Below, in pieces: positions 1 to 31,430 of a stretch of 64,000 bases of DNA. Within the stretch, counting starts at the first letter, position 1. Each line of letters opens with the position of its first letter. The notes under the pieces are model-generated. The model was not told where the DNA came from. It saw nothing but the letters and a program-made list of their open reading frames with translations, and made no database searches. A program made the position numbers and the translations under genes. Origin of the DNA: a virus; IMG/VR virus record IMGVR_UViG_3300049912_000012, positions 1 through 64,000 of that record, one strand, 5' to 3'.

Positions 1-1080
1 TTCTGCTGTGTTAAGAGTCTCATCTAACTTTCCTACCCTATCAAAGACACTTCTCCTATACATTAAAGTTGCACTATGAATAGGATTTGTCTTCAATAAC
101 CTATCTAATGTCACATATTTGTCAGGAGATTTCCATGACTTCAATTGACCATTACTTTGCCTTAACTCAGTAGCATTGCCATGAATAAAATCTACATCTT
201 GTTCTTCTATTGCTTTTACCGAATCTTCTATACAATTAGGAGTAAGCATATCATCTTCATGTAACCACCTTATATAATCACCTGTGGCTTGATTTAAGAC
301 CTTGTTGAAATTCTCCGGCCAATTCCCTTCTTCCTGGCTTACGATGCATTGTACCCACACAGGGATACTTGCTATGGCATCTTTTAGCCATCCTCTATCA
401 ACCTTATACGGAACGATAACAGTAACACGAAGTTTAGGGCTAAAATTGACATATTCTTTGACCCAAGGAACATCTGCATCATGTATTCTTGGTTTCCCAT
501 GAAAACATACAATATCACAATTTTTAGGTAACGCCTGTAATAACTGGTTTCTTTTAGGTTTAAAGTCAACTATCATATTAGTTAATGATTGCCAATAAAC
601 AGGTGTACTTATTATATTCCTTAGATAGTTATCCATCCTATTGCCTGTCCTTCCTTTGAATGAATCCCATACTCTCTTTATAACTTCTGAATTTGCAGGA
701 AACCATGCAAGTCCTGTTGCCAACCTTCCTTTCTGCCAGAAATCTTCAAGTGCAATGAATTTAGACTGATCTATTATTATGTCAAATAGATTTTCAAGAG
801 AATTAATAATTGCAGTATCAAGGTCTACATAAAGAAATGGTCTGTATTGTTCCATCTCAGGAGAATAGAGTTGCATCCTTGCCCATGTACCAGGTAAATC
901 ATTATTAAGAGGGATAAGTTCAAAATTGCCTAAATCGTAATGTTCAGTAGCCTTGTCAAATAAACAAATAATCCTTGGCCTGCCATTTCTCCATTTAGCA
1001 TTTATATGACGTGAAATAAGTTCCACATCTCTTAACTCAAAATCCTTACCACTCCTAAGTACCAATACTATATTAACCAT
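1..1080 (-). CDS. Two-domain glycosyltransferase (N-terminal GT-A/DxD domain plus GT2 domain), runs off the window edge
   Basis: Not in the ORF track; translated by hand from ATG at 1080: MVNIVLVLRSGKDF...FLYVDLDT...VCFHGKPR, then VTVIVPY...GDYIRWLHEDD...VFDRVGKLDE (GT2 motifs). Open to position 1. Confidence 0.8.
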   Translation of the reverse strand, partial: MVNIVLVLRSGKDFELRDVELISRHINAKWRNGRPRIICLFDKATEHYDLGNFELIPLNNDLPGTWARMQLYSPEMEQYRPFLYVDLDTAIINSLENLFDIIIDQSKFIALEDFWQKGRLATGLAWFPANSEVIKRVWDSFKGRTGNRMDNYLRNIISTPVYWQSLTNMIVDFKPKRNQLLQALPKNCDIVCFHGKPRIHDADVPWVKEYVNFSPKLRVTVIVPYKVDRGWLKDAIASIPVWVQCIVSQEEGNWPENFNKVLNQATGDYIRWLHEDDMLTPNCIEDSVKAIEEQDVDFIHGNATELRQSNGQLKSWKSPDKYVTLDRLLKTNPIHSATLMYRRSVFDRVGKLDETLNTAE

Positions 1081-1702
1081 ACCATATTGCTAATATATTT
1101 TCATCCTGGCTGATTTGGATATATCCTAATTTATCCAATAAATTAGATACTGCCCTCATTCCATTTACTCCATATAATTTAGCCTTATCACCATGCCTAG
1201 TAAACCTATTTTCAGGGAAATTCCATCTTTCATACTCTATCATATCAATCTTAACTTTATTAAAATCAATGGATTTTATTATTTCTGCATCATAACCTTC
1301 TGTATCTATCTGCAAATAGTGAATATGTTCAAGAGAATATTTCTCACATAAAGCCATAAACGAAATACAGGGAGAATTAATTATATCAAAATCATTTCCC
1401 CAATCATCCATAGGAAGTAAACTATAGTGAACATCAGAGTAATTAAGTTTACCTATTCGTTTTCCTGATTTACTATATTTATTCTTAGGATGCACCAACC
1501 TTGCATTATTATCATTTGATATTATTACATTTTCAAGTATAATGTCTATTCCTTTATAATTCTCCCTTATTTTATTATTAAGTTTTGCATTAGGTTCTAC
1601 TAATATAACCTTGGTAGGATTAGCATATCTTACTATCTTATTAAAAGCATCATTGCCATTATTAGTACCAATTTGGACTAATATCTTACCTTGTTTAATC
1701 AT
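1073..1702 (-). CDS. FkbM-family methyltransferase
   Basis: VQIGTNNG, ILVEPN and LQIDTEGYD motifs. Confidence 0.85.
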   Translation of the reverse strand: MIKQGKILVQIGTNNGNDAFNKIVRYANPTKVILVEPNAKLNNKIRENYKGIDIILENVIISNDNNARLVHPKNKYSKSGKRIGKLNYSDVHYSLLPMDDWGNDFDIINSPCISFMALCEKYSLEHIHYLQIDTEGYDAEIIKSIDFNKVKIDMIEYERWNFPENRFTRHGDKAKLYGVNGMRAVSNLLDKLGYIQISQDENILAIWYG

Positions 1703-2429
1703 TAACTTTTATATAATTCTCTTTCTTGGTTTGTTTGTGAAGCAATCCATTTTTCCTGAACATTTGTGCATGTATAGGATTGTTAATATCATAAACTTTC
1801 GGATGCCATTGATGAATAACTGAAACATCATCAGCTATTATCATCTTTAGTCTTAATCGTTTTACTCGGTCTACAAAATCATCATCTTCATATCCTGTCC
1901 CCCCAGCATATCTTTCATCAAACCCTCCAAGTATTGAGAGATTTTTCTTAGTGATAGCACAACAGAAGTTATAATGAACTGGGCGATAAATAGAATGATT
2001 ATACCATCCCACATAACTCTCAACTGATTTCTGAGGTAATGTCATAAATTGATCTAATATATCAAGTATTGACATATTCTTATTTATAGAATAACAAGAC
2101 ATTGATACATAATTACTATCATTAACTGTATTTGCTACATAACTAAGCACATCATGAACATGAAAACATTCTGGATTTTGAATAATGACAATATCTCCTT
2201 TTGCTTCTTTTATCCCAATATTGAATGGGATACAGGAATTATGATACCATTTATCTTTTTGTTCAACTCTTATTACTTTTACATTTAAATCTTCTATTCT
2301 TTCTTCTTCTTTACTTGCATCATCAACAACTATAATCTCATAATCTTTATATCCTGATTTCTCAATAGATTTAAGAGTATTAATTAATAACTCCCTCCTG
2401 TTATAATATGCCATAACAATAGAGATCAT
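1695..2429 (-). CDS. GT2 glycosyltransferase
   Basis: ISIVMAYYNR, EIIVVDDAS, GGFDERY..GYEDDDF. Confidence 0.9.
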   Translation of the reverse strand: MISIVMAYYNRRELLINTLKSIEKSGYKDYEIIVVDDASKEEERIEDLNVKVIRVEQKDKWYHNSCIPFNIGIKEAKGDIVIIQNPECFHVHDVLSYVANTVNDSNYVSMSCYSINKNMSILDILDQFMTLPQKSVESYVGWYNHSIYRPVHYNFCCAITKKNLSILGGFDERYAGGTGYEDDDFVDRVKRLRLKMIIADDVSVIHQWHPKVYDINNPIHAQMFRKNGLLHKQTKKENYIKVND

Positions 2430-3250
2430 ATATATCCTTCATTTTGCAAGATAGAAGTCATGCTACATGGTTGATAATTATTACCCAAATAATCCTGTGT
2501 TAAAGGATGAGCATTAAACCAATGTAATGCTAATGTATTTTTATTATCAAGCGGAGAAAGATCATTATCTACATATAGTTGTTTTAAATTATATATTGAA
2601 TATGGATAAAATGTTTCATACTTCAAAGCCAAAATACCAGGTAATAATGACTGTATCTCTCTTAATCCATGAAATTTTTTATTTAAAAGTTCATTACCAA
2701 ATAATTGATAACTTAATCTTTTATGTATCATCCTCTGGTAATTCATCCATAAATATATGAACCTGCTATTCTTTTTAGCAATTACAACACCTATACTATG
2801 AAACCCAGTTTTAAATTGATATAAACATATTGTTGCATCAAACTTTAAAGGATTTCCAATACAATCAATATTAACTATTTCATTAATAGATTTTAACCAT
2901 AATACATCAAAATCACAATATATACCTCCAATATAATAAAGCACATTAGTTCTTAAAAGATCAGAACCCATAGATGAATGAATACCTCTTCTAATACCGT
3001 AATCAGATATGTTAATCTTCTTAATTATAACAAAAGGCATAGATTCTAATAACGGAAAATAATCTTTCCCTACATATACAGGATTAAATAAATTTACTCC
3101 CAAGTCTTCATTTTTTTGTAATGTACTATAAACTATTATCTGCCAATCAGGATTATACCTATGGAACGATAAAATGGTAAATATCATTAACTCTGGCATA
3201 GGTGATGATCCTCCCCAATAAAAATGGCAAATTTTCGGAACTGCATTCAT
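2426..3250 (-). CDS. GT32-like (Gly_transf_sug, DxD) glycosyltransferase
   Basis: PKICHFYW, SDLLR..LY..GGIYCDFDV; paralog of 3776..4633. Confidence 0.85.
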   Translation of the reverse strand: MNAVPKICHFYWGGSSPMPELMIFTILSFHRYNPDWQIIVYSTLQKNEDLGVNLFNPVYVGKDYFPLLESMPFVIIKKINISDYGIRRGIHSSMGSDLLRTNVLYYIGGIYCDFDVLWLKSINEIVNIDCIGNPLKFDATICLYQFKTGFHSIGVVIAKKNSRFIYLWMNYQRMIHKRLSYQLFGNELLNKKFHGLREIQSLLPGILALKYETFYPYSIYNLKQLYVDNDLSPLDNKNTLALHWFNAHPLTQDYLGNNYQPCSMTSILQNEGYI

Positions 3251-3798
3251 TTCTTTACAAGTATAAATGCATCATCATATCTTCCCTTGACACTTCTTAA
3301 ATCTATTAATTTCCAAGGTATTTCAAGTGCATAAAACTTCCTCCTATTCTTTTCGCAATTAAAATCCTCAATAATTATCATCCCTCCCTTATTAATTATT
3401 GGATACATCAATCTTATAATCCTTGCTTGTGTTGTAAGCAAATGCGAACCATCATCAATAACTATATCAGGAATAAAATCTTTAAAATATTCAACATTGA
3501 GTGATCGTACATCCTTTTGTTCAAATATTACCCTATTGCCTAATACAACATTACTTTCTTCAAAATCCTGTGGGTTTATATCAATAACCTTGATCTTAGC
3601 CTTGGTAAAATAATCCTCCCATAACTTAGTACTACCTCCTTTGTAATATCCTATCTCAAATATATTAATCTTCTTGTGCTGGAAAGGTTTAAATAATTTA
3701 TCATATTCAGGCAAATACGAATGATCACTTCCTTTATCCGTAGGATATTTTTTATAACCTCCTTTTTCATATAATTCAACCAAAGTCATATCCTTCAT
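3247..3798 (-). CDS. Class I SAM-dependent sugar O-methyltransferase-like protein
   Basis: TDK..HSY..Y, FEIG...GGS, DIVIDDGSH, GGMIIIED. Confidence 0.8.
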   Translation of the reverse strand: MKDMTLVELYEKGGYKKYPTDKGSDHSYLPEYDKLFKPFQHKKINIFEIGYYKGGSTKLWEDYFTKAKIKVIDINPQDFEESNVVLGNRVIFEQKDVRSLNVEYFKDFIPDIVIDDGSHLLTTQARIIRLMYPIINKGGMIIIEDFNCEKNRRKFYALEIPWKLIDLRSVKGRYDDAFILVKK

Positions 3799-4633
3799 TT
3801 TTTAATATAGTAGTCATACTGCAATCTTTATACTCATTACCATTTATGTACTGTTTACTCAAAATATTCCCATTAAACCAATGGATACACATTACATTCT
3901 TATTATCTATAGGGGTTAAATCATTCTCAATAAATAACTGTTGCATGTTAAAAGTTGAATAAGGATAAAAAGTTTCATATTTAATTGCTAATACCCTGGG
4001 ATATAAATCTATTATGCTTTCTAAAGTAGGATAAAGTTTATTAACCATCTTTGTTCCAAATGACTGGTCTCCAAAAGGTCGTTTTACTCTCTTTACTGCA
4101 TCCATCATTGACTTAATGAATAAACTTCCCTTTTCTGCAATAAGGTTAGAAACATTATGAAATCCATGAGTATAATTATAAAATGAAACTACTGCTTCAA
4201 AATCTTTGGGATTACCAATACATTCTATATTCTCAAATTCACTCATAGGTCTTAACCATATTACATCAAAATCTGAATATACTCCTCCATTTTCATAAAG
4301 AATCTCCCTCCTCCATATATCTGATACTAATACAGAATGAACTCTATACCTATTTATATCAAACTCTCTTACCTGTACATAAGGTAATTCTTCGAGCATG
4401 TAGAAATAATCTTCACCTTCATAATCCTGGTATTTCAAATTAGAGATTTCCTTATCTTTTTTTATAGGAACTTTATGAGCATTGTAAACTACTATCTTCC
4501 AACCAGGATTATACTTATGAAATGAAAGAACAGTCACCACATTAAGATAAGACATTGGTGTGCGATTCCAATATAAATAACAAACTTTAGGAATGTGGTT
4601 CATATTTTTCAGGATAATCTGTACATACTCCAT
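3776..4633 (-). CDS. GT32-like (DxD) glycosyltransferase (likely start 4603)
   Basis: IPKVCYLYW, SDIWR..ILYENGGVYSDFDV. Confidence 0.85.
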   Translation of the reverse strand: MEYVQIILKNMNHIPKVCYLYWNRTPMSYLNVVTVLSFHKYNPGWKIVVYNAHKVPIKKDKEISNLKYQDYEGEDYFYMLEELPYVQVREFDINRYRVHSVLVSDIWRREILYENGGVYSDFDVIWLRPMSEFENIECIGNPKDFEAVVSFYNYTHGFHNVSNLIAEKGSLFIKSMMDAVKRVKRPFGDQSFGTKMVNKLYPTLESIIDLYPRVLAIKYETFYPYSTFNMQQLFIENDLTPIDNKNVMCIHWFNGNILSKQYINGNEYKDCSMTTILKNEGYDFG

Positions 4634-5015
4634 AAGCCTTGCTTATATCCCAATCTTTAACTAACTCAGGCATAAAAACTATTGATTTATTATTAATTTC
4701 CAACCCAGGAGCTACCATCAAAAATCCATGAGTAGATTTTGTAATACCACTATCATGCATAAATGAATTAAATCTTTTAAATCCCGATAAAAAATTAAAA
4801 GCCTCTATATTTTTACAATGTAACCACATATGATTATTTAAAAATGAAAAATCAATTTTATATTGAGGGTAATCATGTCCAAGATAAAGTCCATGTTTAT
4901 ACCAAATATCTATTTCCACATCATATCCTTTAATTAATGTTTCCCAAATATAATCAGGATGATTTTCAAGGATATTTGGACCATGAACATTACCTCTATG
5001 TGAAATTATTAACAT
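4587..5015 (-). CDS. Short GDPD/PLC-like phosphodiesterase-domain protein
   Basis: IISHRGN...EN.P.YI...GYDVEIDIW...LGHD...WLHCKN...CTDY. Confidence 0.75.
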   Translation of the reverse strand: MLIISHRGNVHGPNILENHPDYIWETLIKGYDVEIDIWYKHGLYLGHDYPQYKIDFSFLNNHMWLHCKNIEAFNFLSGFKRFNSFMHDSGITKSTHGFLMVAPGLEINNKSIVFMPELVKDWDISKAYGVCTDYPEKYEPHS

Positions 5016-5851
5016 TGATTATTATATTTACTCCAGTACTCATATGACCTCATTACATCATAAACGTCTTTAACCTGTCCTCCATTAATAATAATTTGCC
5101 ATGCTTCAAAATTCCTGATGTCATCAGGTTTCCCAAAAGATAATACAAAATCCGTCAAGTAAGAATAAACTTTTAACTTATCTTTAATCAAAAGATTATA
5201 TACTAATGTAACATAATATTCCCCATTATAATTAATATCTTTTTCAACTAATTGTTTGAAATATTTTTTTATATATCCTCCATGTCTAAAATAATAAGTC
5301 CCTGAAGATGCATGCTCCTTGAACTTATTATTCGTATAACAACTTTTCTCTTTAATCTCTAAAACCCTATTTTGTTTATCTAGCTTTGAATATGCAAATA
5401 ATGTAGAATTAAGTGTATGCGGATGGAAATCTGTATGACTAACTATACATCCATCAACATTATAATTATCTATGTATAATTTAAAATTATTATAATCCCA
5501 TATTATAGGTGTATCACAATAAGTTACAATAACAGGTTCATCTTCATAAACAAGAGCATCAAATGCAAGGATAGTAAATACAGGACCAAGTTTATGTACC
5601 GGCATTGAAACAACATTAGCATGTTTAACCAAATTTTCTAAAATACCCCTCATCCCTGTTGTTTCAAGATGTTTATCATTACAAATAAATGTAAACTCAT
5701 CTTCATCCCTATCAAACATATCACATACATATTCTATTATATGTTTACCTCCTACCTTAATAAGAGGTTTAGGGTCTGTATATCCTTCTGCAACAAACCG
5801 TTCCCCACTACCTGCCATTGGAATTATGATGTGCATATTTTCTCCTTCCAA
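5009..5851 (-). CDS. Sugar-phosphate nucleotidyltransferase (likely start 5836)
   Basis: IIIPMAGSGERF..GY..PKPLI, EIKEK, NGEYYV. Confidence 0.85.
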   Translation of the reverse strand: MEGENMHIIIPMAGSGERFVAEGYTDPKPLIKVGGKHIIEYVCDMFDRDEDEFTFICNDKHLETTGMRGILENLVKHANVVSMPVHKLGPVFTILAFDALVYEDEPVIVTYCDTPIIWDYNNFKLYIDNYNVDGCIVSHTDFHPHTLNSTLFAYSKLDKQNRVLEIKEKSCYTNNKFKEHASSGTYYFRHGGYIKKYFKQLVEKDINYNGEYYVTLVYNLLIKDKLKVYSYLTDFVLSFGKPDDIRNFEAWQIIINGGQVKDVYDVMRSYEYWSKYNNQC

Positions 5852-6678
5852 TAACTAAATTTCAATTTCTCCATATTCCATTGCCTATCTTGGTTCTCAA
5901 TAAGCCAATTAAGCAAAAATTCTTCTGTCACTTGATCCCAATCTTCAACTAAACATATAGGTAAGTCTTCATAAAACATGTTATTCACATTCCTTCGTTC
6001 TATTGGTATTGATCCCATGTAAAGAACTTCCCAAGGTCTATGTGTCTGTACCCCATTACCTTCTGGTGATATTACAAACTTGTGATTGTAAATATAATGA
6101 AGATAAATATCAAATGAAACTATATTTTCTTCTGTTACTGCAGTTACAAAAGGTTCTTTGCCTAATATTTCATAAGGTCTTACTCTCTCTTTCGGATTAC
6201 AATAAATACGATGATCCATATAAACAAGATTAATCAATGACCTTTTCTCCTGCATTTGGGCAAGCATCTTCTTCTTCTTCTCTTTTTTTGGAAACCATCT
6301 TTCATTTTCTAATCCTGTAGGAATAGACTCTATTTTAGGATTTACAACTTTTATGTTTTGCCCATACCATTTAATAACATTACTAGGTATTTCAAATGAA
6401 CCATCAATACCTTCATCACAATTATGAGATACAAGAATAACTTTCTTGGTATCTTTAATAATGTTTAACAATTCTTGTTTATAAGAAATAAAACCTGTAC
6501 AGAATATAATATCACCATCTTCTAACTTCTCAATATCTAACGTATTTGTTCTTTTAGCATAGTCCCACTTACTCAATATTGCAGGAGCATATATATATTT
6601 ACATATATCAATAAATTTATTACCTACTATCCAATCAGGCGTATCCATTAATCTTATTTTTCCAATATCCAAAGTCAA
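5824..6678 (-). CDS. Exostosin-like (GT47-related) glycosyltransferase (likely start 6648)
   Basis: HKFVISPEGNGVQTHRPWEVLYMGSIPI. Confidence 0.7.
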   Translation of the reverse strand: MTLDIGKIRLMDTPDWIVGNKFIDICKYIYAPAILSKWDYAKRTNTLDIEKLEDGDIIFCTGFISYKQELLNIIKDTKKVILVSHNCDEGIDGSFEIPSNVIKWYGQNIKVVNPKIESIPTGLENERWFPKKEKKKKMLAQMQEKRSLINLVYMDHRIYCNPKERVRPYEILGKEPFVTAVTEENIVSFDIYLHYIYNHKFVISPEGNGVQTHRPWEVLYMGSIPIERRNVNNMFYEDLPICLVEDWDQVTEEFLLNWLIENQDRQWNMEKLKFSYWKEKICTS

Positions 6679-7549
6679 GCATTTCCATCTTCCATTGTTT
6701 ACCTTTTATCCTTGCATATTCAATCTCAAGAAATTCTTCTGTCACTTCTTCCCAGTAATTGACAAAACATATAGGAAGATCAGTATAAAACTGGTTGTTG
6801 ATATTTTTTTTCTCAATAGGAATAGAACCCATATAAAGAGTTTCCCATGTCCTATGTGTATCAACTCCATTACCTCTTGGACAAATTACAAACCTATGAT
6901 GATAAATATTATCCAAGTATTTGTCAAAATCATATCCATTCTTGCCATTTTCAATGGTAATCCAAGGTTGGTCTTTAAATATTATATATGGTGCTGTTCT
7001 TTCTTTTTCATTTGTCTTTATATTATGATTCATATAAAGCCAGTTACGTACTCCATTAGATGTTTGTAATTTAAGCATCATCTTTTCTTTTTTCCTAATC
7101 TCAGGAAACCACCGGTTGTTCTCAAGTCCTATAGGGATAGATTCTATCCTTTCATTTTTTACACAAACATTTTGACTATACCATTTAACAATATTAGGAG
7201 GCAATTTAAAGGACTCATCTATATTCGTGTCACTATTATGGCTAACAACTATAAAGTGTCTCTTATCGCTTCCTATGAGGTTAAAAAGTTGGTTTATATA
7301 TAATGTATGAGTATATATAATATCCATATCTTTAATTAAGGAAGGTTGAAGAGTATTACGAAGCCTATTATAATCTCCATTACTCCTTGAAGGAGGAGAA
7401 TAAGTAAATTTCCCTAATTCCATGAACTTTTCCCCAGTTATAAAATCAACCATGTTGTTTTCTTTTTGACCATGAAACTCCCCAATGATGAATAGCAAAT
7501 GAGAATTCCTTAATAAATTCTGTCCTGTCCACATCCTGTTTCCTAACAT
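6635..7549 (-). CDS. Exostosin-like (GT47-related) glycosyltransferase, tandem paralog (likely start 7453)
   Basis: HRFVICPRGNGVDTHRTWETLYMGSIPI; collinear similarity to 5824..6678. Confidence 0.7.
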   Translation of the reverse strand: MLGNRMWTGQNLLRNSHLLFIIGEFHGQKENNMVDFITGEKFMELGKFTYSPPSRSNGDYNRLRNTLQPSLIKDMDIIYTHTLYINQLFNLIGSDKRHFIVVSHNSDTNIDESFKLPPNIVKWYSQNVCVKNERIESIPIGLENNRWFPEIRKKEKMMLKLQTSNGVRNWLYMNHNIKTNEKERTAPYIIFKDQPWITIENGKNGYDFDKYLDNIYHHRFVICPRGNGVDTHRTWETLYMGSIPIEKKNINNQFYTDLPICFVNYWEEVTEEFLEIEYARIKGKQWKMEMLDFGYWKNKINGYA

Positions 7550-8237
7550 AATTAGGCATAGGGTAAAAATAATCAGGAGGTAATGCTAACACTCCCTTAC
7601 TATCTTTATTCACAACTCTAAAAAAATTTCTTGTGAAGAAATAAGTACCTGTTGTCTCGAATATATTTTTCCACCCTGCAGGATTTGCCTTGATCATATT
7701 TTTTATTATCAATTCCATAACAGGATGATGTGGAGTACAACCTATCAACCCAATATAAAGTTCTACCTTGGAAGGATAACCTATACCTGTTATAAAATTA
7801 GCATAAGTAAGTTCATCAAAAGATTTTAAACACTCAAAATCAGTATCTACATATATACCACCAAATTGGTTAAGAATATGATAACGTAGAAAATCAGACT
7901 TTTGCCCTAAATGAGTTATTGTATCAAATAATCTTCTTCTATAAATATAAACATCATTAATATCTTTCTCTGTCCATAACTTATATTCCCATTCAGGATT
8001 AAACTCGCTCCATGATTTAGTCATTTTCTCATACTGTCCTGGCATCTTATCCCCAAACCAAATCTGATGGATTTTCCTAGGTAATACAGAATAATCCCTA
8101 TCTTGTGTATGATTAATAAAATTATTATTATAAAGATCACGAAGAGTTGACCAATTAGGATTATTGTCAAAATCCCATTGATTAAAATTATAAGATGTTT
8201 TTATTAACTCATCGAATCCTAAGATAGAATGCATCAC
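7446..8237 (-). CDS. GT32/Och1-like glycosyltransferase
   Basis: PRKIHQIWFG, NPEWEYKLWT, KSDFLRY.IL..FGGIYVDTD. Confidence 0.88.
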   Translation of the reverse strand: MMHSILGFDELIKTSYNFNQWDFDNNPNWSTLRDLYNNNFINHTQDRDYSVLPRKIHQIWFGDKMPGQYEKMTKSWSEFNPEWEYKLWTEKDINDVYIYRRRLFDTITHLGQKSDFLRYHILNQFGGIYVDTDFECLKSFDELTYANFITGIGYPSKVELYIGLIGCTPHHPVMELIIKNMIKANPAGWKNIFETTGTYFFTRNFFRVVNKDSKGVLALPPDYFYPMPNYVRKQDVDRTEFIKEFSFAIHHWGVSWSKRKQHG

Positions 8238-8829
8238 CCCATTTATATTTGGTTATATAAGTATCCATTCTTTTAAATCCAAAACTTACAACATATTCAT
8301 CAATATCTTTCATCAAAGCACAACCTTTATAAAGTTGTTCCTCATTAACTTCTGTATAGATATAATCCAATGCTCCAAGTAAATTACCAAAACTCTTGAT
8401 CACATTTAATTCCACTCCTTGTACATCTATATTCAAAAAGTTATAATCTTTTATGTCCCTACCTGTCAAGAATAAAAAGTTATCCATTCGCATCATCTGT
8501 ATATCTTGATCTCCTATATACTTAATATCAGGACGATATTTAGAATGAGTACCAAATTCAAGTATAGATGAACTTTGTCCTTCATTACTTGCTATATGTA
8601 ACTTGGCCGTCTTTAATTCATCATGGATACCAATGTTAAATGCTGTATGATTCTCTATAAACTTTATATTCTTTCCTAATTTCTCAAATACATCAATATT
8701 AGGTTCAAACCAAAGTACAGGTGAAAATTTCTGTTGAATATACCAATCCCTTTCTGCTCCTGTATTCGCTCCTACATGAATTGCACCACGCCTATCTTTA
8801 AGATATTTCTCAAATGTTTTAAACAACAT
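8209..8829 (-). CDS. FkbM-family methyltransferase
   Basis: IHVGANTG, FEPN, NIDVQGVEL, YTEVN. Confidence 0.88.
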   Translation of the reverse strand: MLFKTFEKYLKDRRGAIHVGANTGAERDWYIQQKFSPVLWFEPNIDVFEKLGKNIKFIENHTAFNIGIHDELKTAKLHIASNEGQSSSILEFGTHSKYRPDIKYIGDQDIQMMRMDNFLFLTGRDIKDYNFLNIDVQGVELNVIKSFGNLLGALDYIYTEVNEEQLYKGCALMKDIDEYVVSFGFKRMDTYITKYKWGDAFYLRIR

Positions 8830-9583
8830 AATCAGGTATCTTAATCCATTCTTCAGGAAATCTTAACTTGTCATCTATTACCTGGTCTCCTAACCACTTA
8901 TAAGGACTTATAACTATCTTATTAGGATTATCATTAAGTATTGCAGCCCAATAACTGAATGTACTATTAGTTGTCACGTTTTGCTTACAAAGCCTCATAA
9001 GTTCAAATGCAAGATAATCTTCTATATCTACAAAAGTTATATTAGAGAAATAATCGTTGAATTTACTTTTACACCAAGAAATATCATCACTAAAAACAAA
9101 CAACTCTCCTTTTACATAACCTAATGCCCTAATATAATAATGAAATGGAAGTTCATGGAATCCTTTTTGAACCAAGTAATCTCCTCTACGTACATGAACT
9201 GAAACTGAATTTGTACTAGTAATTTTATCTCTTAATGCTAAAAATTTCTTAGTATGATATTGTTCTTTGACTACAAGTTCTTCTCTTAAACAGGGAATAA
9301 TATCTTTAAAATATGGATAATATTGCCAATAACCTACAAAGTTAAAACCATCCATCTTCAATAAACTCATATCAAATCCCCTATGTTTTTCATAGATTGT
9401 ATTTTTTATAGACTTGTGAAGATTAATCTTAGTATTAAATTTATCTAACCTATAAGGACGATGAACATTCTTACTTTTAACATACCATGATAAAGTATAA
9501 CGGGTATCATTAATATTTGCCCTGCCAAATGCATATTGAAACATCTGATTGCCTAACCCACCCATTATACGAATTACATTCAT
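8819..9583 (-). CDS. GT11 alpha-1,2-fucosyltransferase-like protein
   Basis: GGLGNQMFQYA, GYWQ, VHVRRGDY, FSDDISWC, NSTFSYWAA. Confidence 0.9.
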   Translation of the reverse strand: MNVIRIMGGLGNQMFQYAFGRANINDTRYTLSWYVKSKNVHRPYRLDKFNTKINLHKSIKNTIYEKHRGFDMSLLKMDGFNFVGYWQYYPYFKDIIPCLREELVVKEQYHTKKFLALRDKITSTNSVSVHVRRGDYLVQKGFHELPFHYYIRALGYVKGELFVFSDDISWCKSKFNDYFSNITFVDIEDYLAFELMRLCKQNVTTNSTFSYWAAILNDNPNKIVISPYKWLGDQVIDDKLRFPEEWIKIPDYVV

Positions 9584-10284
9584 GCAGTTTTTATTAATAA
9601 ATCATTAACTGAATACTTAGGAAAATCTACTATTGCTGAATCAGGCGATCCATTAAGAACTTCCACTCCCATCCTTTTTGCATCTTTAGCAATCTCTGGA
9701 AATCCTCTTAAATGTCTTACAAATGGAAGTTTCATAATCCTCTTGGCATCCATAACCTGTCCCCTACCATAAAGATTATGCCAGTGTTGCATGTTCGTAG
9801 TATCAAGTTTCATATCAAATCCAAGCAAGATAACTCTTTTAGCTCCTGCATGAATAGCTAAACTGATTGCTGCAGCACCACTATTATAATTCCATGAAAC
9901 TGAATTAGGATTATCGCTAATACCTCTTCCCTTGTGATCTCTTGGAAGATACTTAACCCAATTAAATTTTTCTATCTGGGGATGACAGCATACTTTGATA
10001 CCAGGAAATTGTGCTAATTTTTCTTTATGCTGTAAAAAAAAACCTATGTCTCCAAAAAACGCTACATCAATCCAATCACCAATTAAATAAGCTACATTTA
10101 TTCCTATGACATGTTTATCATGTATTCCTGACATATATGGAGAATAAACACTCGGAGGGGAAGTCCCATTCACAACCTGTTGCACGACAAGTTGTGGAAT
10201 ACCAAACTGTTTCGGAACAGATGGTCCTCCCCCCAATATCCAAACGTCTCCCTCTTCCCATATCTTAGGAACATTCCAAATCAT
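9580..10284 (-). CDS. Maf/MptE-like (MAF_flag10) fold protein, candidate glycosyltransferase
   Basis: VWILGGGPS, VIGIN, NSGAAAI.LA...GAKRVILLGFDM. Confidence 0.6.
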   Translation of the reverse strand: MIWNVPKIWEEGDVWILGGGPSVPKQFGIPQLVVQQVVNGTSPPSVYSPYMSGIHDKHVIGINVAYLIGDWIDVAFFGDIGFFLQHKEKLAQFPGIKVCCHPQIEKFNWVKYLPRDHKGRGISDNPNSVSWNYNSGAAAISLAIHAGAKRVILLGFDMKLDTTNMQHWHNLYGRGQVMDAKRIMKLPFVRHLRGFPEIAKDAKRMGVEVLNGSPDSAIVDFPKYSVNDLLIKTA

Positions 10285-10607
10285 TATGCGAGATCATCAA
10301 TGAGTTTTTGTGCAACTTCTTTTGTCAAAGCTTTCTCATTGAGTACTTTACCATCTTTGTTAACTACATCAAATAAACTCTTGCTCTTACCTCTTGGTTG
10401 CATATTGTAAACAGTTTTTGCCACAACAAGCGGAGGTTCATCCTTTTTAGGTATACTTTCAAGTGGAATGATAAGGTCTTTAAAAGCATTCGGTATCACG
10501 TCAGGATGCGCCCTAAATGTCTGACCTGGCTTTATAATCTTCCCGTTCAGCCTCAAAGAACCTCCTCCTACCTTTTTCCACATTATTGATCCATCTTCTC
10601 TCTCCAT
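10284..10607 (-). CDS. Hypothetical protein, possibly virion-associated
   Basis: 107-aa ORF in the head operon, translationally coupled to the glycan cluster. Confidence 0.55.
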   Translation of the reverse strand: MEREDGSIMWKKVGGGSLRLNGKIIKPGQTFRAHPDVIPNAFKDLIIPLESIPKKDEPPLVVAKTVYNMQPRGKSKSLFDVVNKDGKVLNEKALTKEVAQKLIDDLA

Positions 10608-10634
10608 AACTAAGTATTTTTAATATTAAAATTA

Positions 10635-11381
10635 CTATGCTGCTTTATTCTTCTTTAATGCTTGCTTTGTAACGCTTACTTTATCTCCAATCTGCTTCTT
10701 CCCTTCAGGTGAAATATTATTCCAAAACTCCTGTTTTATACTTCTTCTCTCTTCTATATCTATAGAGGCAATCATCTTTTCTCTCATAGTCTGCCACTGC
10801 TTTAGAGCTGCTTCCCTAAGAGCTTCCTTATGATGTGCTTTTGCCTCTGTAGACATGCTTAATTTAGCTTGCCTACAAACCTCTCTATGTCTCTCTTTTT
10901 TCTCAGGAGTCCATTTAATAAGTTGAACTTGTCTAATATTTTCAACCATTTGATCTTTTTTATCCTTATCCATGTTAGCCATTCCTCTTTTCGTTCCTTC
11001 ACTTGTCTTTCGTCTCTCTTCAGGATTTTTAAAACGTTCTATTGCTTTTATGCTCATTAATGCTTTTGAATCTTCTGAAAAACATCCACTCACTCTTAAA
11101 CCACCAGTAGGACTAATATTATAACCATTAGGAGAAAATGTATTATATTGTAATATATATTTAGATTGAGCATTATAGGCATCTACTTTTAACATAAACC
11201 TTTCTAGTATCCGTCTTTCAAAATTAAACTTTCCATATTTCTTGATAGCATCCCTGAGCATATCACCACTACCAATATACCTGTCATCAATATTACGTGT
11301 AGAATGCTCACCTACATATTGCTTTCCATTAATTTTATTAGTCGTGATATATACGTAATGATATTTTCTTGTTATTGTCAT
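10635..11381 (-). CDS. Free-standing GIY-YIG (Seg-like) homing endonuclease
   Basis: YVYITTNKINGKQYVG.H...YIGSG, GYNISPTGG, NUMOD3-like basic repeats. Confidence 0.85.
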   Translation of the reverse strand: MTITRKYHYVYITTNKINGKQYVGEHSTRNIDDRYIGSGDMLRDAIKKYGKFNFERRILERFMLKVDAYNAQSKYILQYNTFSPNGYNISPTGGLRVSGCFSEDSKALMSIKAIERFKNPEERRKTSEGTKRGMANMDKDKKDQMVENIRQVQLIKWTPEKKERHREVCRQAKLSMSTEAKAHHKEALREAALKQWQTMREKMIASIDIEERRSIKQEFWNNISPEGKKQIGDKVSVTKQALKKNKAA

Positions 11382-11423
11382 ATTGAAAAATTACTTGGTT
11401 AGTAAGTATTTGATAATCAGCAT

Positions 11424-12521
11424 TTAAGCCAAATGTACTATGCCCGATTTTCCGTTTTGGTCACTGCGCAATTGCGGGATTTGTATTGTCACGACTTTAA
11501 ATTTCGTAAGCCAATCGCCCTCCGTTTTCCACTCTACGTTCTGAAGTCCAAGACCCTGAACAAGTCTTACTACATCAGGAGTCATCTGGACAAGAAGTAC
11601 GTTATCAGCAGTAAGGGTATCAACTACCTTTATGCCTTTAATACCTGCAATCTTCAGAATCCTCTCACGAATAGTAGTACCTGGGGTATTAGTATCGTAG
11701 TCATCATCTAACACAGTTTCATAAGCTGTTGGTATATACAACATCCAAGGACCATAGTGATAAGCATTGATACTTGCCTGTTTCATCTCCAAGACATCCT
11801 GGAGTATTCCTGCAGCAGTCATTGCTGAATGATTCCAGTGTATGCTGAGATTAACGGTGTTCCTGTCAGGATGGTTGACATAAGAATAAATCTTGTTCAA
11901 CCCCCTTGAGTCTGTTTCCCCAAATGCATAAGTTGTATTTGTGAAAAGCATAGTTTCAAGTTTTTCCTGGATTCTACGAGCAGCCATTTCAGCAGCAGTG
12001 GTATCCAATGGATTACCAAGGCTACGTGAAGCTGCAAGTACTCTTGCATTGATCTCATAATCCACATGAATTACAGGAATAGGCAGATAATTGTGTTGGA
12101 ACTTAGGCCTATCACCATTACCACGAGTGATACCATCCATAGTAAGAGTTGCCTCCATCCCATCACTTACATCATGCCATTCAAGTACAGTAGTCCCCAT
12201 TGCATTACCAAGTTGATAAGTGAGACCATTGGAAATAAGGTCTTCTATACCACCAAGACGATAACGGGAAGCTACAAGAAGAGCTTCATCAAGTTGTTTC
12301 CACTCATCCCTACGGAGAGTAGCATTAGTATTTATAGGTTTTGTCACCCAATTGTCCGGATCAGATGTAGCACCACCTTTATAAATGGTAATATATGCCC
12401 TGCCATCATTGCCTATAAATGGACGCATTGCACCAAGATTCATCTGACCAGCACTTGCGAGCTGATTAGCAACCTCTCCTGCACCCTGTCCACCTGCGAT
12501 TAAATCTACATTTACGTTCAT
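11424..12521 (-). CDS. Major capsid protein (HK97 fold, encapsulin/linocin-like)
   Basis: 365 aa, strong AAGGAGG SD, follows protease and decoration genes; EWKQLD, PIPVIH.DY.I..R, LDTT.A..AAR motifs. Confidence 0.85.
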   Translation of the reverse strand: MNVNVDLIAGGQGAGEVANQLASAGQMNLGAMRPFIGNDGRAYITIYKGGATSDPDNWVTKPINTNATLRRDEWKQLDEALLVASRYRLGGIEDLISNGLTYQLGNAMGTTVLEWHDVSDGMEATLTMDGITRGNGDRPKFQHNYLPIPVIHVDYEINARVLAASRSLGNPLDTTAAEMAARRIQEKLETMLFTNTTYAFGETDSRGLNKIYSYVNHPDRNTVNLSIHWNHSAMTAAGILQDVLEMKQASINAYHYGPWMLYIPTAYETVLDDDYDTNTPGTTIRERILKIAGIKGIKVVDTLTADNVLLVQMTPDVVRLVQGLGLQNVEWKTEGDWLTKFKVVTIQIPQLRSDQNGKSGIVHLA

Positions 12522-12543
12522 TATTTATCCTCCTTTATATATT

Positions 12544-13050
12544 TTAAACTATCCTAACCTTGATACGAGGATGATAATAAGCACCTCCGGCACTTGAATC
12601 TGATCCTTCAGGAAGCGTAGAAAGATTCTTTGCTTCCAAAGCAAGAGCAACAACAGGAAAACTATACACTGTATTAGCTACCTGTGCATCTGCAGAAGTC
12701 CATGTTTCAACAGTATGTTTAGTTAACATCCCATCACCATTAGATTCCAAAGGATCACCAATAGCTATGTTCTGTTCATCTGCTAAACAAGCATAAACAA
12801 TATCACCTCTTCCTGCAATCCACACCTGTACTTGATCACCAGATGTGTAACTATCATCTATCCCTTTACCCTGAAGTTCATCTTCAAGAGCAAACATAGG
12901 AATAGCATTACCTCCAGATGTAGCATGTTTGCGAATAGTTGCTGCAGCAGGAGTCTGTTCAACCAGTTGACCTGGAAGAATAGCAGTAGCAGCAGTAAAC
13001 TCTTCTATTACATCGGAGTACTTCTTGATTTTAATTGTCTGATAAGCCAT
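12544..13050 (-). CDS. Capsid decoration/cement protein
   Basis: 168-aa beta-rich protein between protease and MCP, strong SD. Confidence 0.65.
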   Translation of the reverse strand: MAYQTIKIKKYSDVIEEFTAATAILPGQLVEQTPAAATIRKHATSGGNAIPMFALEDELQGKGIDDSYTSGDQVQVWIAGRGDIVYACLADEQNIAIGDPLESNGDGMLTKHTVETWTSADAQVANTVYSFPVVALALEAKNLSTLPEGSDSSAGGAYYHPRIKVRIV

Positions 13051-21784: not shown

Positions 21785-22624
21785 TTACTGTATTTTAAAC
21801 CACTTCTGTTTGCCAGTAGGTCTTATATACTTGCATACATATAATGAACTATCTGAAGTTTTAAATACGAGAGTTCCATATTTTGCAGCAACAGTTGTAT
21901 CACCAACATACATTATCGCTGGAACATTAAGAGTCATTGCAGATGAGTCAATCTTAACTATGCTTGTGCCAATCTTACTATTCAAATTCAAAGCTGGCGA
22001 TCCTGTATATGAATACGAAAGATTGAAACTTGAACTATCGGAAGCCTGTGCAAATGTATCTCTGCGTTTATTTACAGTACTCTGTACGAAATTAAAGGCA
22101 TTCAGATTAGTTGTAGTGCTTGATATGACAGATAGCTTTGTAAGAGGCGTTGCAGTACCTACTCCAAATCCTATTGAGTCAGCACGAAACAATACATTAC
22201 CCTGTTTATCAGTCATTGTAAGTAGTGGAGAGCCGGTATAAGTGTACCATAAATTCAATGATGAACTATCCCTTGCCTGGGTGGTAGTGGTCCTGTTTTT
22301 ATTAGTAGTACTGTTAACGAAATTAAAGCTATTTAAGCCATTTGTCGTTGACGATGATACTACAAACTGGTGTAATGGAGAAGTTGACCCTATGCCTACA
22401 TATGACGTTCCTGACGTAAGCAAATTACCACCTGACAATGTAAGTGTGTTGCTTGTATGAGTAAGTAATAAGTCTCCATTATTCCAATTAATTATTCCTC
22501 CTGATCCATATAAATGTAATAACGGAACAGATTTACGAATTATCAAATCATAGTATTTTGTTTTCTGTGCCGACAAAGTTATTGTCAGTACAAACATAAT
22601 TAAACCCAAGAGTGTTTTTTTCAT
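21785..22624 (-). CDS. Signal-peptide protein with two internal fibre-like repeats
   Basis: MKKTLLGLIMFVLTITLSA-Q signal; repeats VGIGSTSPL...YTGSP and FGVGTATPL...YTGSP. Confidence 0.65.
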   Translation of the reverse strand: MKKTLLGLIMFVLTITLSAQKTKYYDLIIRKSVPLLHLYGSGGIINWNNGDLLLTHTSNTLTLSGGNLLTSGTSYVGIGSTSPLHQFVVSSSTTNGLNSFNFVNSTTNKNRTTTTQARDSSSLNLWYTYTGSPLLTMTDKQGNVLFRADSIGFGVGTATPLTKLSVISSTTTNLNAFNFVQSTVNKRRDTFAQASDSSSFNLSYSYTGSPALNLNSKIGTSIVKIDSSAMTLNVPAIMYVGDTTVAAKYGTLVFKTSDSSLYVCKYIRPTGKQKWFKIQ

Positions 22625-29499: not shown

Positions 29500-31430
29500 T
29501 AGTAAATAGAATATTTTGCATTCAGATAATTTATTACAGATGTCTGATTAGGGTCAGTGTCCACAATACCAACTCTGAAGATAACTTCTTTAATGGACAT
29601 GCTTGCGGCATCGTCATTATGACTACCAATCCTGAGAATAGAATATCCACTCTCAGTACCAAGTGTACCAGTTACAGCAGTATTGGCATTTATCTGAATC
29701 TTTGATCCATTAGAAACATCATTATTATGAACATTCCTAATAATATAATATGTATCATCCGTCCAATAACTATCTGATGTTGAAAATGCTTCTCCTCCTC
29801 CCATCAATGTAAGCCCATGAAGTGATCCGGTTCTTATATTTAAAGTACTGAATCCAAGTCTGTAAAGAGCTTTCCCAGCACCATCAGCATGTATGGCAAC
29901 AACCATATAGATAGTCATTGGAAATGTATAACTGACAGCATCATTTTCAAGATAGTCATTAACACCATCAAAATCAATCTCTAAATTGACAGAATCTTTA
30001 ACAGGTCGGTATGTTGCTGGTGAGATTAAATCCCATCCCGAAGAAGACTGATCTTCCAATTTGTAAATATAACCAAGACTCCTGCTCATGTATGTTGCCG
30101 ATCCATCACCATACATATACCATCCTTTTGTATATGTATCAGATGAAAGAAATGACGGAGGTGTTACCGCTTGATTACTTATAGTGATATTCCTATGACC
30201 ATGTACCGCCGATCCATCATCGGCAGTCGAAGTTACTTCAACAACACCATTTGAAACAGCTGTAAGAAGTCCTCCGGCACTGATAGTCCCTATATCCTCA
30301 TCATCTACTGACCATGTATTTGAAGTATCCGCAGCATTAGTTGGTAATGTCTTTTTAAGCATTTGGAGTGTTCCTTCCGACACTGTTATAGTTGTTGCCC
30401 CTCCAGTACCCCATACAGAAATGCCAGTAACCAATATTGGTAAATTATTGGTAACTGGTTTATTAACCCAAGAATTAACTTTATTTAACGTGCTATCTTG
30501 TAATCTTTTCTTACCATTCTGAGTAGCATTTGTTGAAGTATAATCCAATAAATATGTAGTGGTGCTTGTTGTGCCAGGATCAGCCAAAACTAAGAATAAT
30601 GAATCATTACTTATAAGTGCAGTATCCAAAACTACATGAGTACCATTTGCTGTAAAATCAAATCCTTCAACCGATGGAATTGAATCCTGATGCACATCAG
30701 TAGTATCAAAAACGACAACTAAGGTATCATCAGCATAGTCCCCTATCTCTGCACTTAAAAACCTGGGGGGTGCAATATCAAGACCTAAATTATTGATATT
30801 TTCGATTAGAGTAGCTAAATCATCCTTTATAATTTGCACTTCAGCTATTAAACTGTCTATTTTATAATAAAGATATGTAGTATCATAGACATACATTTCT
30901 CCAATCTGCTCTCTATATGCGTATGGAATATATGGAGCAAGAGTGTCAGACCCATGATAAATCTTAACATCACTTGCTACTGAAGAAATAGAATCAATCT
31001 GGACTTTTGCTGAACCTCCAACCTTTAATGCAGGAGTTATCACAATGCCTGTAAACGTTGGTGATACAATATTTGACTTTAAAGGCATCCTTATATCCAT
31101 TGTATCATGTATCTGATCAGCTACTTCTGTCTCTGATAGTCCTGCCTCCCCTAATTCAGATGAAAGAGCATAGTGCGATAACATATTGGCAGTATCCGAT
31201 ACATTTACCTTGCCATTATTATATGGTAGTAAAATAGTTGCGCCATTATAGAACTTTATATCACCCGCTGTTGAACTTATACTATCAATCTTGACTTTTG
31301 AAGATTTGGTTACATAATTTCCTCCGACTTGTAATCCACCAAAAGCCCTCACTTGGTATTTAAAGTCGTTCTGGGCGAATAGATTAAGTCCAACAAGCAA
31401 AAAACTAACTATTAAATATATCCTCTTCAT
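29499..31430 (-). CDS. Secreted multidomain protein: repeat region + Ig-like + Big_2 + LamG-like domain
   Basis: Signal MKRIYLIVSFLLVGLNLFA-Q; Big_2 closely similar to that of 26635..29499; C-terminus paralogous to 20691..21782. Confidence 0.7.
   Translation of the reverse strand: MKRIYLIVSFLLVGLNLFAQNDFKYQVRAFGGLQVGGNYVTKSSKVKIDSISSTAGDIKFYNGATILLPYNNGKVNVSDTANMLSHYALSSELGEAGLSETEVADQIHDTMDIRMPLKSNIVSPTFTGIVITPALKVGGSAKVQIDSISSVASDVKIYHGSDTLAPYIPYAYREQIGEMYVYDTTYLYYKIDSLIAEVQIIKDDLATLIENINNLGLDIAPPRFLSAEIGDYADDTLVVVFDTTDVHQDSIPSVEGFDFTANGTHVVLDTALISNDSLFLVLADPGTTSTTTYLLDYTSTNATQNGKKRLQDSTLNKVNSWVNKPVTNNLPILVTGISVWGTGGATTITVSEGTLQMLKKTLPTNAADTSNTWSVDDEDIGTISAGGLLTAVSNGVVEVTSTADDGSAVHGHRNITISNQAVTPPSFLSSDTYTKGWYMYGDGSATYMSRSLGYIYKLEDQSSSGWDLISPATYRPVKDSVNLEIDFDGVNDYLENDAVSYTFPMTIYMVVAIHADGAGKALYRLGFSTLNIRTGSLHGLTLMGGGEAFSTSDSYWTDDTYYIIRNVHNNDVSNGSKIQINANTAVTGTLGTESGYSILRIGSHNDDAASMSIKEVIFRVGIVDTDPNQTSVINYLNAKYSIY

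Follow-up and report, generated by a model that had tools for sequence, protein, structure and literature searches.

A run of glycan enzymes between the capsid and connector genes

The window analyzed here, a 64,000-nucleotide stretch of viral DNA (positions 1 to 64,000 of IMG/VR record IMGVR_UViG_3300049912_000012), is the first 64 kb of a 78,889-bp contig from an uncultured phage of freshwater sediment and carries, next to its capsid genes, an uninterrupted island of glycan-building enzyme genes headed by a Maf-like transferase gene. The contig bears an exact terminal direct repeat of 181 bp (contig positions 1-181 are identical to 78709-78889); thus, the genome is closed, and the enzyme run, which reaches base 1 of the window, wraps around the junction and continues at the far end of the contig. 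The completeness of the genome was estimated by CheckV at 100%. The record class in IMG/VR is linear with no end repeats, despite the 181-bp exact repeat.

The island starts two genes past the gene of the major capsid protein (MCP; HK97 fold, DUF6260 type; 11424-12521, minus strand; PF19774, 4.4e-16; phrog_771 and phrog_264), the genes in between being a GIY-YIG endonuclease gene and an open reading frame (ORF) of 107 amino acids (aa). From position 10607 to position 1, every ORF is encoded on the minus strand and either abuts its neighbors or overlaps them by 1-104 nt, leaving zero intergenic gap, and the genes are presumably co-transcribed. The island holds 15 enzyme genes with 16 catalytic domains in total and is placed exactly between the capsid and connector genes. 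The original prediction, made from the letters of the window, had put at least 14 glycan genes inside the capsid operon at the position of the head-tail connectors. The gap-free run between the MCP gene and the connectors agrees with this placement, and the count rises to 15 with a sulfotransferase-like gene that extends the run past the window edge. The G+C content of the island is 28-33% vs. 37-40% in the adjoining capsid region.

Reading away from the MCP gene, the first enzyme gene (9580-10284) encodes the Maf/GT42-like transferase of 234 aa (phrog_4603, 5e-30; PF01973, 18.2 bits). The next three genes were assigned to GT11, the alpha-1,2-fucosyltransferase family (8819-9583; PF01531, 3.6e-21), to FkbM methyltransferases (8209-8829; PF05050, 4.4e-13), and to GT32-type DXD glycosyltransferases (7446-8237; PF04488, 8.1e-15). 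An exostosin (GT47)-like glycosyltransferase gene (6635-7549) matched PF03016 at 2.3e-5 and 24 bits, which is under the Pfam cut-off, with relatives reaching 9.5e-12, and is followed by its tandem paralogue (5824-6678; 50% identity, E of 6e-90). Next come the genes of a sugar-1-phosphate nucleotidyltransferase (5009-5851; PF12804 and PF00483; PDB 4evw, 9.8e-8; phrog_3980, 1.2e-57) and of a 142-aa protein (4587-5015; phrog_34507, 5.6e-22). The latter had been called GDPD-like (glycerophosphodiester phosphodiesterase-like), a call that only its N-terminal HRG...ExD motif and a weak Atlas lead (0.85) favor; no Pfam or NCBIfam match and no PDB match with an E below 0.9 was found for it. The remainder of the island in the window consists of a second GT32-type DXD glycosyltransferase gene (3776-4633; PF04488, 1.2e-9), a class I S-adenosylmethionine (SAM) methyltransferase gene (3247-3798; phrog_21658, 7e-19; Pfam matches under the cut-offs), a third GT32-type DXD gene (2426-3250; PF04488, 1.3e-8), a GT2 glycosyltransferase gene (1695-2429; PF00535, 6.8e-16), a second FkbM methyltransferase gene (1073-1702; PF05050, 3.3e-14), and the first 360 aa (1-1080) of a two-domain transferase of 413 aa, the gene of which runs on to contig position 78547. 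This transferase combines a GT8-like N-terminal half (phrog_1962, 7e-27, residues 3-146) with a GT2 C-terminal half (PF00535, 9.8e-10, residues 246-349). Altogether, the matches to profile hidden Markov models (HMMs) and PHROGs, together with the identity between the paralogues, recovered the GT11, three GT32, two exostosin-like, GT2, three methyltransferase, and nucleotidyltransferase genes that had been named from the letters.

The sulfotransferase-like gene (231 aa; contig 77855-78550, minus strand) showed a weak match to PF17784 (5.8e-5; relatives up to 5.2e-12), and the GIPRSG and RRRTGD...S segments of its product are what we take to be motifs of the type binding 3'-phosphoadenosine 5'-phosphosulfate. 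Past this gene lie the genes of the DUF4054 connector, the neck, the tail terminator, the lambda-type tail tube, the chaperone, and the tape measure. All of the closest GT11 homologues come from phage-sized or small metagenome contigs, suggesting that the island genes circulate inside the phage group.

Absence of genes for priming and export

No hydrophobic 19-aa segment resembling a transmembrane (TM) helix was detected in any island protein. Genome-wide, no polytopic transporter-like ORF was found, the only polytopic ORFs being those of a 132-aa protein, the tape measure, and a 430-aa protein of the head module. Likewise, none of the 400 cassette proteins from 53 relatives with a fully tiled slot carried more than one TM-like segment, and neither the genome nor the slots of these relatives contained an initiating phosphoglycosyl transferase, a flippase, an ABC exporter, or a polymerase. 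The prediction that Wzx, Wzy, ABC exporter, and priming genes are lacking thus extends beyond the window: on the contig to the left of it, where such genes might have lain, there are the sulfotransferase-like gene and the connector and tail genes instead.

The Maf-like anchor enzyme

A model of the Maf-like protein was built with AlphaFold2 (AF2) on an alignment of 57 family members and reached a predicted local distance difference test score (pLDDT) of 92.6. In VIA-align comparisons, the model superimposed on the Maf protein of Magnetospirillum (5MU5) with a Z of 15.0 and a root-mean-square deviation of 3.3 A over 189 residues, all within the central domain (261-514). The Campylobacter sialyltransferases CstI/CstII (1ro8, 2p2v, and 1ro7) followed with Z of 11-12 and the archaeal MptE kinase (8sd5) with 10.5, and the next unrelated fold scored 4.5 or less. 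The GGGxS and GFD motifs and the histidines H58, H167, H169, and H191 are invariant or near-invariant in the family. Sequence-based comparisons gave lower scores: the PF01973 match amounted to 18.2 bits against a cut-off of 34.6 (two close homologues have a precomputed PF01973 match), the PDB profile search with the family alignment returned only E of 0.13-0.38 with no GT42 chain matched by sequence, and Foldseek alone gave no match at an E of 0.001 or better, its top entry being MptE 8sd5.

The members of the family are 226-250 aa long and miss the N- and C-terminal helical domains of the approximately 600-aa Maf. On its model, the protein is a stand-alone catalytic domain of Maf/GT42 type and not a full Maf. 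The original annotation of the gene as Maf-like therefore stands for the fold, but only for the catalytic domain and with a Pfam match under the cut-off. No flagellin gene adjoins the island, the neighbors being the capsid gene, the 107-aa ORF, and glycan enzyme genes. The general Pfam and NCBIfam scans of the cluster turned up no gene for nonulosonic acid (NulO) synthesis (NeuB-type or cytidine monophosphate (CMP)-NulO synthetase), and these families are not among the 25 commonest in the cassettes of the relatives, in which only PseB-like dehydratases (4 of 88 proteins) were seen. Homologues of the anchor enzyme form approximately 1800 clusters in metagenomes, and literature searches gave no relevant record of Maf-type enzymes encoded among the head genes of a phage.

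Fixed ends and a variable middle among relatives

We compared the locus with more than 229 IMG/VR relatives collected by MCP (designated by L numbers where they need to be told apart), 53 of which have the complete capsid-to-connector interval; the presence of the Maf-like gene was scored over 134 assessable distinct loci. The gene is kept at the head-tail junction in 126 of the 134. In a clade at approximately 42% MCP identity, the Maf-like gene is found directly behind the first connector gene, and it is the only glycan gene in the relative L036. The Maf-like enzyme, whose gene is the sole glycan gene left in minimal relatives, is the nearly invariant and probably the initiating enzyme of the system. 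In this respect comparative genomics backs the role of initiator proposed for it earlier.

The capsid-to-connector interval of the 53 relatives ranges from 1.0 to 9.8 kb, 82-103% of which is tiled by ORFs on the same strand, and in 43 of these 53 loci the island ends with a sulfotransferase gene. Between the anchor and the sulfotransferase, 55 gene families were distinguished, arranged in 39 architectures among 54 phages, and the number of extra genes ranges from 0 to 5 in phages with MCPs 93-95% identical. A Pfam tally over 88 representative cassette proteins yielded GT2, FkbM, GDP-mannose dehydratase, epimerases, PseB-like dehydratases, GT11, GT10, GT9, sulfotransferases, adenosine 5'-phosphosulfate (APS) kinase, and radical SAM proteins; APS kinase occurs in the cassettes of two relatives. 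The methylated, possibly fucosylated glycan originally envisaged is plausible from the GT11 gene of this phage and from GDP-mannose dehydratase and GT10 in the cassettes of the relatives. Contigs from four other freshwater-sediment/metagenome runs gave only scattered pieces of 151-312 nt, which are uninformative on the swapping of cassettes.

The 107-aa ORF (10284-10607, minus strand) was detected in 77 of 80 relatives and is absent from the island-less lineage of L117 and L152; this protein travels with the island. It is a two-module protein (AF2 model, pLDDT of 85) with no Pfam or PHROG family, its matches in BFVD were uncharacterised phage proteins only (E of 5e-3 or worse), and no similarity was found to the ORF following the MCP gene in Brevundimonas phage MaInes. 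The latter, a cultured phage at 36% MCP identity, possesses no island, and its connectors come directly after the capsid gene. In one sub-lineage, a second protein of 705-763 aa that clusters with the family of the Maf-like and 107-aa proteins is encoded after the first Maf-like gene (L047:3084-5375, L056:12505-14625, and L027:12189-14306); the 763-aa protein of L047, the one member scanned, has a C-terminal FkbM methyltransferase domain.

Candidate acceptor proteins

Two proteins of the particle carry serine-rich segments that, among the closer relatives, vary with the presence of the Maf-like gene. The head-decoration protein (168 aa; 12544-13050, minus strand; phrog_766, 1.9e-11) has a Ser-rich loop before its last strand, at residues approximately 141-157 (NLSTLPEGSDSSAGGAY; the loop of this phage is also given as NLSTLPEGSDSSAGG). 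At least two serines occur in this loop in 112 of 120 relatives with the Maf-like gene, at a mean of 3.9 Ser per 20 residues (109 sequences). The tail tube protein ends in a tail of 6-12 Ser, Gly, and Thr residues in all of the 53 phages with the Maf-like gene assessed (53/53), which reads SSGGSTGV in this phage.

On the MCP tree, the absence of the Maf-like gene maps to two changes, both of which coincide with the loss of the decoration loop and of the tail on the tail tube. L062, which lacks the gene, and its sister L028, which has it, share 80% MCP identity; the decoration protein of L062 is short by exactly the 15 residues DLSGSSGEESSGPLGY, and its tail tube is also without the C-terminal Ser/Gly tail (5 aligned residues) of L028. 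The other change concerns L117 and L152, in which there is no island and the gap between the capsid and connector genes is 16-28 bp. Inserts of approximately 100 residues are present in both proteins of this lineage, which measure 255 aa (decoration; region L152:9210-9542) and 246 aa (tail tube); protein domains seem to have taken over from glycans as the surface decoration. The original prediction had sought the acceptor on the virion, in capsid or fibre proteins. Candidates did emerge among virion proteins, with exceptions considered below, but they are the decoration and tail tube proteins and not the MCP or the fibres. Because of the exceptions at greater distance and of the number of contrasts, which is only two, we keep both proteins as candidate acceptors proposed from their sequences, not as established targets.

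Probable glycosylation of the phage particle and competing explanations

We consider that the island is best explained by a late, cytoplasmic glycosylation of the phage's own particle, to which we assign a probability of roughly 60%. This view draws on the gap-free position of the run between the MCP and connector genes, the missing export machinery, the fold and the widespread retention of the anchor, the turnover of the cassettes, the coinciding losses of the Maf-like gene and the Ser segments, the lack of a tyrosine integrase, and the precedents described below. By analogy, the system is probably a larger, hypervariable, and probably sulfated variant of the virion glycosylation of mycobacteriophages. 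The soluble Maf/GT42-type transferase would add the first sugar, from a nucleotide sugar supplied by the host, to exposed Ser-rich segments of the particle, the best candidates being the loop that precedes the last strand of the decoration protein and the short tail of Ser and Gly residues on the tail tube. The donor may be a CMP-activated ulosonic acid, judging from the relatives of the fold. Interchangeable soluble enzymes, namely GT11, the three GT32, the two exostosin-like, GT2, and GT8+GT2 transferases, the three methyltransferases, the nucleotidyltransferase, and the sulfotransferase, would go on to elongate and modify the glycan in the cytoplasm, with no lipid carrier, flippase, or polymerase involved. 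The quick turnover of the middle genes would result in different surface glycans on closely related phages.

Several observations weigh against this explanation. The glycosyltransferase families present are the ordinary ones of lipopolysaccharide (LPS) and capsule synthesis. The fold of the Maf-like protein, which is without the flanking domains of Maf, equally resembles GT42, and GT42 enzymes use lipid-linked oligosaccharides as substrate. The link to the acceptors consists of two independent contrasts, with which a sign test cannot reach significance, and it has exceptions: L182 possesses the Maf-like gene and neither Ser segment, the complete genome of L209 has no Maf-like gene and no GT2 and its tail tube ends in AGSTTTTT, and four distant relatives without the Maf-like gene retain at least two serines in the decoration loop. 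A conserved hairpin with a T-run separates the MCP gene from the island, and transcription of the island may therefore be partly uncoupled from that of the MCP gene. The sequencing-run listing shows no RNA run with this DNA.

The enzymes might act on the host rather than on the particle. Soluble transferases could remodel lipid-linked glycans of the host at the inner face of the membrane (LPS/O-antigen, capsule, or the general O-glycan of Bacteroidota), with host flippases and transferases finishing the work; the outcome would be a masked receptor on the dying cell and its debris or a phage-customised glycan on exported phage fibres. GT2, GT32, GT11, GT8, GT9, and GT10 together with FkbM are typical of surface-polysaccharide loci, the second-best fold match, GT42 (Z of 11-12), works on lipo-oligosaccharide, and the lack of priming and export genes is also expected if the host machinery is borrowed. 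Three late proteins with Sec-type N-termini (29499-31430, 26635-29499, and 21785-22624, minus strand) fit the idea of exported fibres; the first of them (643 aa) has 14 D(S/T)(A/I/L/V/M/T) sequons, the motif of O-glycosylation in Bacteroidota, vs. 4.3 +/- 1.8 in shuffles, and five of the 13 metagenome-assembled genome (MAG) bins bearing the Maf-like gene are of Bacteroidota. We nevertheless regard this explanation as unlikely. It gives no account of the constant place of the anchor at the head-tail junction, which holds across clades with MCP identity as low as 42% and also where the anchor stands alone, or of two losses of the Maf-like gene that coincide with the deletion of Ser segments in proteins assembled in the cytoplasm. 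Genes of the late block would be poorly timed for rebuilding the cell surface, and moron-type genes usually have a promoter and a terminator of their own, whereas here there is no intergenic space. Moreover, no tyrosine integrase (PF00589) was found in the genome in a search of which serine recombinases were not part, which makes lysogenic conversion unlikely.

The fold of the anchor could also be read differently, as the top rank of MptE 8sd5 in Foldseek (Z of 10.5) and the Pfam match under the cut-off would allow the 234-aa protein to be an MptE-type pyrophosphokinase or another nucleotide-binding enzyme of head assembly, with the glycan genes as passengers at a permissive recombination site. 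The head-tail junction is indeed a known site of insertion and houses a homing endonuclease here. However, Maf scores higher (Z of 15.0 over 189 residues) and GT42 also ranks above MptE, sugar enzymes are the neighbors in nearly all relatives, a sulfotransferase stands at the other end in 43 of 53 loci, and the phages of the PAJU2 type pair a Maf-like domain with a methyltransferase, all of which render the passenger scenario quite improbable. Very improbable in our view is a role in the hypermodification of phage DNA bases by glycosylation, or in the modification of a small molecule: the complete genome holds no thymidylate-synthase-like hydroxymethylase, the island is located at the head-tail junction and not in the replication module, and 15 enzymes including fucosyl-type transferases and a sulfotransferase go far beyond the known DNA glycans, even though the cluster contains a nucleotidyltransferase and phage glycosyltransferases that build DNA glycans are known (cited in PMC12619734).

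Returning to the glycosylation of the particle, a wider scenario can be proposed tentatively, as one that we hold to be possible at somewhat less than even odds. A large and widespread family of environmental siphophages, probably infecting Bacteroidota, would maintain an O-antigen-like hypervariable locus for its own particle, in which a Maf-type primer and a terminal sulfotransferase frame a swapping cassette. Near-identical capsids would thereby display different methylated, fucosylated, and sulfated glycans on the decoration and tail tube proteins ('virion serotypes' under diversifying selection), and lineages that lose the system would either drop the acceptor segments or carry protein domains in their place. 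If the island does glycosylate the particle, complex, sulfated, and fast-diversifying glycan coats would be common in an abundant group of sediment and freshwater phages, and phage particles would show a serotype-like surface variation. The question of what is selected would then arise, with the sticking of particles to mucus or other particles, the evasion of hosts or grazers, stability, and the avoidance of re-adsorption as possible benefits. The island would also provide a new protein-priming glycosyltransferase along with a set of soluble tailoring enzymes, for which Pseudomonas phages PAJU2 and D3 could serve as culturable models.

Comparison with known glycosylation systems

Phages shown to glycosylate their particles with enzymes of their own are, to our knowledge and in the literature searched, limited to a few mycobacteriophages that use two to four such enzymes. 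Work by Freeman and colleagues, published in Cell Host Microbe in 2023, reportedly established virion glycosylation in the mycobacteriophages Che8, Corndog, and Myrna. PMC12619734, quoting Freeman et al. 2023, places the glycans on the C-termini of the capsid and tail tube subunits, and the same study is cited for virion glycosylation in PMC10877033. The island resembles these systems in having soluble glycosyltransferase and methyltransferase genes inside the structural operon of the virion, and the candidate Ser/Gly tail of the tail tube would correspond to the C-terminal glycan sites of mycobacteriophages. In contrast to the approximately 2-4 genes of mycobacteriophages, 15 are present here. 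Corndog gp35-38, located between the portal and the protease, comprise a TylF-type methyltransferase, a GT2-like protein, and GT25 with no Maf/GT42 match in Pfam, whereas a Maf/GT42-type anchor is present here, and the sulfotransferase, the slot between the MCP and connector genes, and the 39 architectures in 54 phages further distinguish the island from the mycobacteriophage systems.

The Maf-like protein shares the fold of the central domain as well as GGGPS- and GFD-type motifs with the Maf O-glycosyltransferases of flagellin (PF01973/DUF115), and it would presumably act as they do, in the cytoplasm and on Ser/Thr residues of a protein whose later polymerisation takes place apart from the usual secretory routes of glycosylation. 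It differs from Maf in its size of only 234 aa, the absence of flagellin neighbors, and the Pfam score under the cut-off. A parallel in gene order exists in the D3-like Pseudomonas phages PAJU2 (ORF010-012; L082:7780-9723) and IME307 (L083), which have a Maf-like gene, a 275-aa gene, and a methyltransferase gene between the head-tail adaptor and tail genes. The Maf-like domain of the PAJU2 type shows 28% identity (E of 7e-8), and IPKSTS forms the end of the tail tube protein. In the PAJU2 record, the depositors named the product of the Maf-like ORF010 a 'structural protein'. Unlike the island, this Detrevirus cassette comprises three genes and belongs to an unrelated siphophage lineage with a cultured Pseudomonas host.

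Giant viruses offer a likeness of another kind. The soluble cytoplasmic transferases of PBCV-1 (A064R, A061L, and A075L) include an enzyme annotated as exostosin and a protein with two transferase domains and a methyltransferase domain, and relatives of Mimivirus possess clade-specific clusters of glycogenes, one of them with sulfate-metabolism enzymes (PMC9614988). Likened by description, these viruses share with the island soluble transferases encoded by the virus, a complex, methylated, and fucose-containing glycan on their own capsid, and clusters that vary among clades, but theirs are eukaryotic systems with N-linked or fibril-linked glycans and mostly genes with promoters of their own, in contrast to an operon-embedded island of a tailed phage. 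With O-antigen and capsule loci, the island has in common conserved flanks, hypervariable GT2, GT11, GT32, sugar-nucleotide, and methyltransferase genes, and differences between close genomes; unlike them, it contains no phosphoglycosyl transferase, flippase, polymerase, chain-length regulator, or ABC transporter and sits in the virion operon. It also differs from the moron genes of lysogenic conversion in the absence of a PF00589 integrase and of intergenic space within the run.

Possible regulatory elements around the island

Within the run, there is no space for a promoter or a terminator, and the only spacers near the island are those from the MCP stop to the start of the endonuclease gene (42 nt) and from the endonuclease stop to the 107-aa ORF (27 nt). 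Directly after the MCP stop lies a hairpin with a T-run (11386-11405, minus strand; stem TTACT/AGTAA, loop AACCA). A hairpin with the invariant center CU-AAYCA-AG follows the capsid gene in 90 of 186 relatives; its stem covaries (0.437 vs. 0.131 +/- 0.018 in shuffles, 0 of 500 reaching this value), with one stem pair being CG in 26, GC in 18, UA in 10, and AU in 4 cases. A second copy is found after the tail tube gene (L001:11680-11700, minus strand; contig approximately 75680-75700), and Rfam gave no family in 10500-11500. The hairpin is probably an attenuator, an mRNA 3'-end, or a protein-binding element of the late operon. We infer that it delimits the two abundant structural mRNAs against downstream genes with lower expression, a level that would suit enzymes.

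The original prediction had raised a separate early promoter as a point that would speak for another role of the cluster. Matches to sigma-70-type promoters were not above chance (78 vs. 84.9 expected; terminators, 3 vs. 4.9), a search that is silent on promoters of the Bacteroidota type, but the hairpin parts the MCP gene from the island. The 27-nt spacer before the 107-aa ORF also holds a copy of an AT-rich palindrome (10614-10635, no strand assigned), which has 5 matches with up to 3 mismatches where 0 are expected, and its other copies are found where genes of the early region meet (37116, 42754, and 43690). It was rejected as a promoter or operator of the island, since the relatives do not conserve it there (9 loose matches among 133).

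Other features of the genome

The late block is entirely on the minus strand and extends from approximately 35.9 kb to base 1 and over the junction to contig position approximately 67.3 kb. It opens with the small and large terminase subunits, a 13-kb insert with fibre-type proteins, the portal, and a minor head protein, continued by a 548-aa DUF2213 protein, the head-decoration protein, and the MCP. The GIY-YIG homing endonuclease gene (10635-11381, minus strand; phrog_314, 2.1e-28; PF01541) lies between the MCP hairpin and the island and has a counterpart in or close to this place in only 4 of 80 relatives; it is a mobile insertion outside the island proper.

A tRNA scan detected none, and a nucleotide search of window positions 1-12600 against a phage collection gave no match. 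The MAG bins with the Maf-like gene were rejected as a guide to the host, as the 13 bins are spread over more than 8 phyla (5 of Bacteroidota) and all are probably binned phage contigs. The host is probably a Gram-negative member of Bacteroidota. At the far end of the tail module, the phage encodes a caspase-family protein of 273 aa (Peptidase_C14, 1.4e-20; contig 67953-68774, minus strand).

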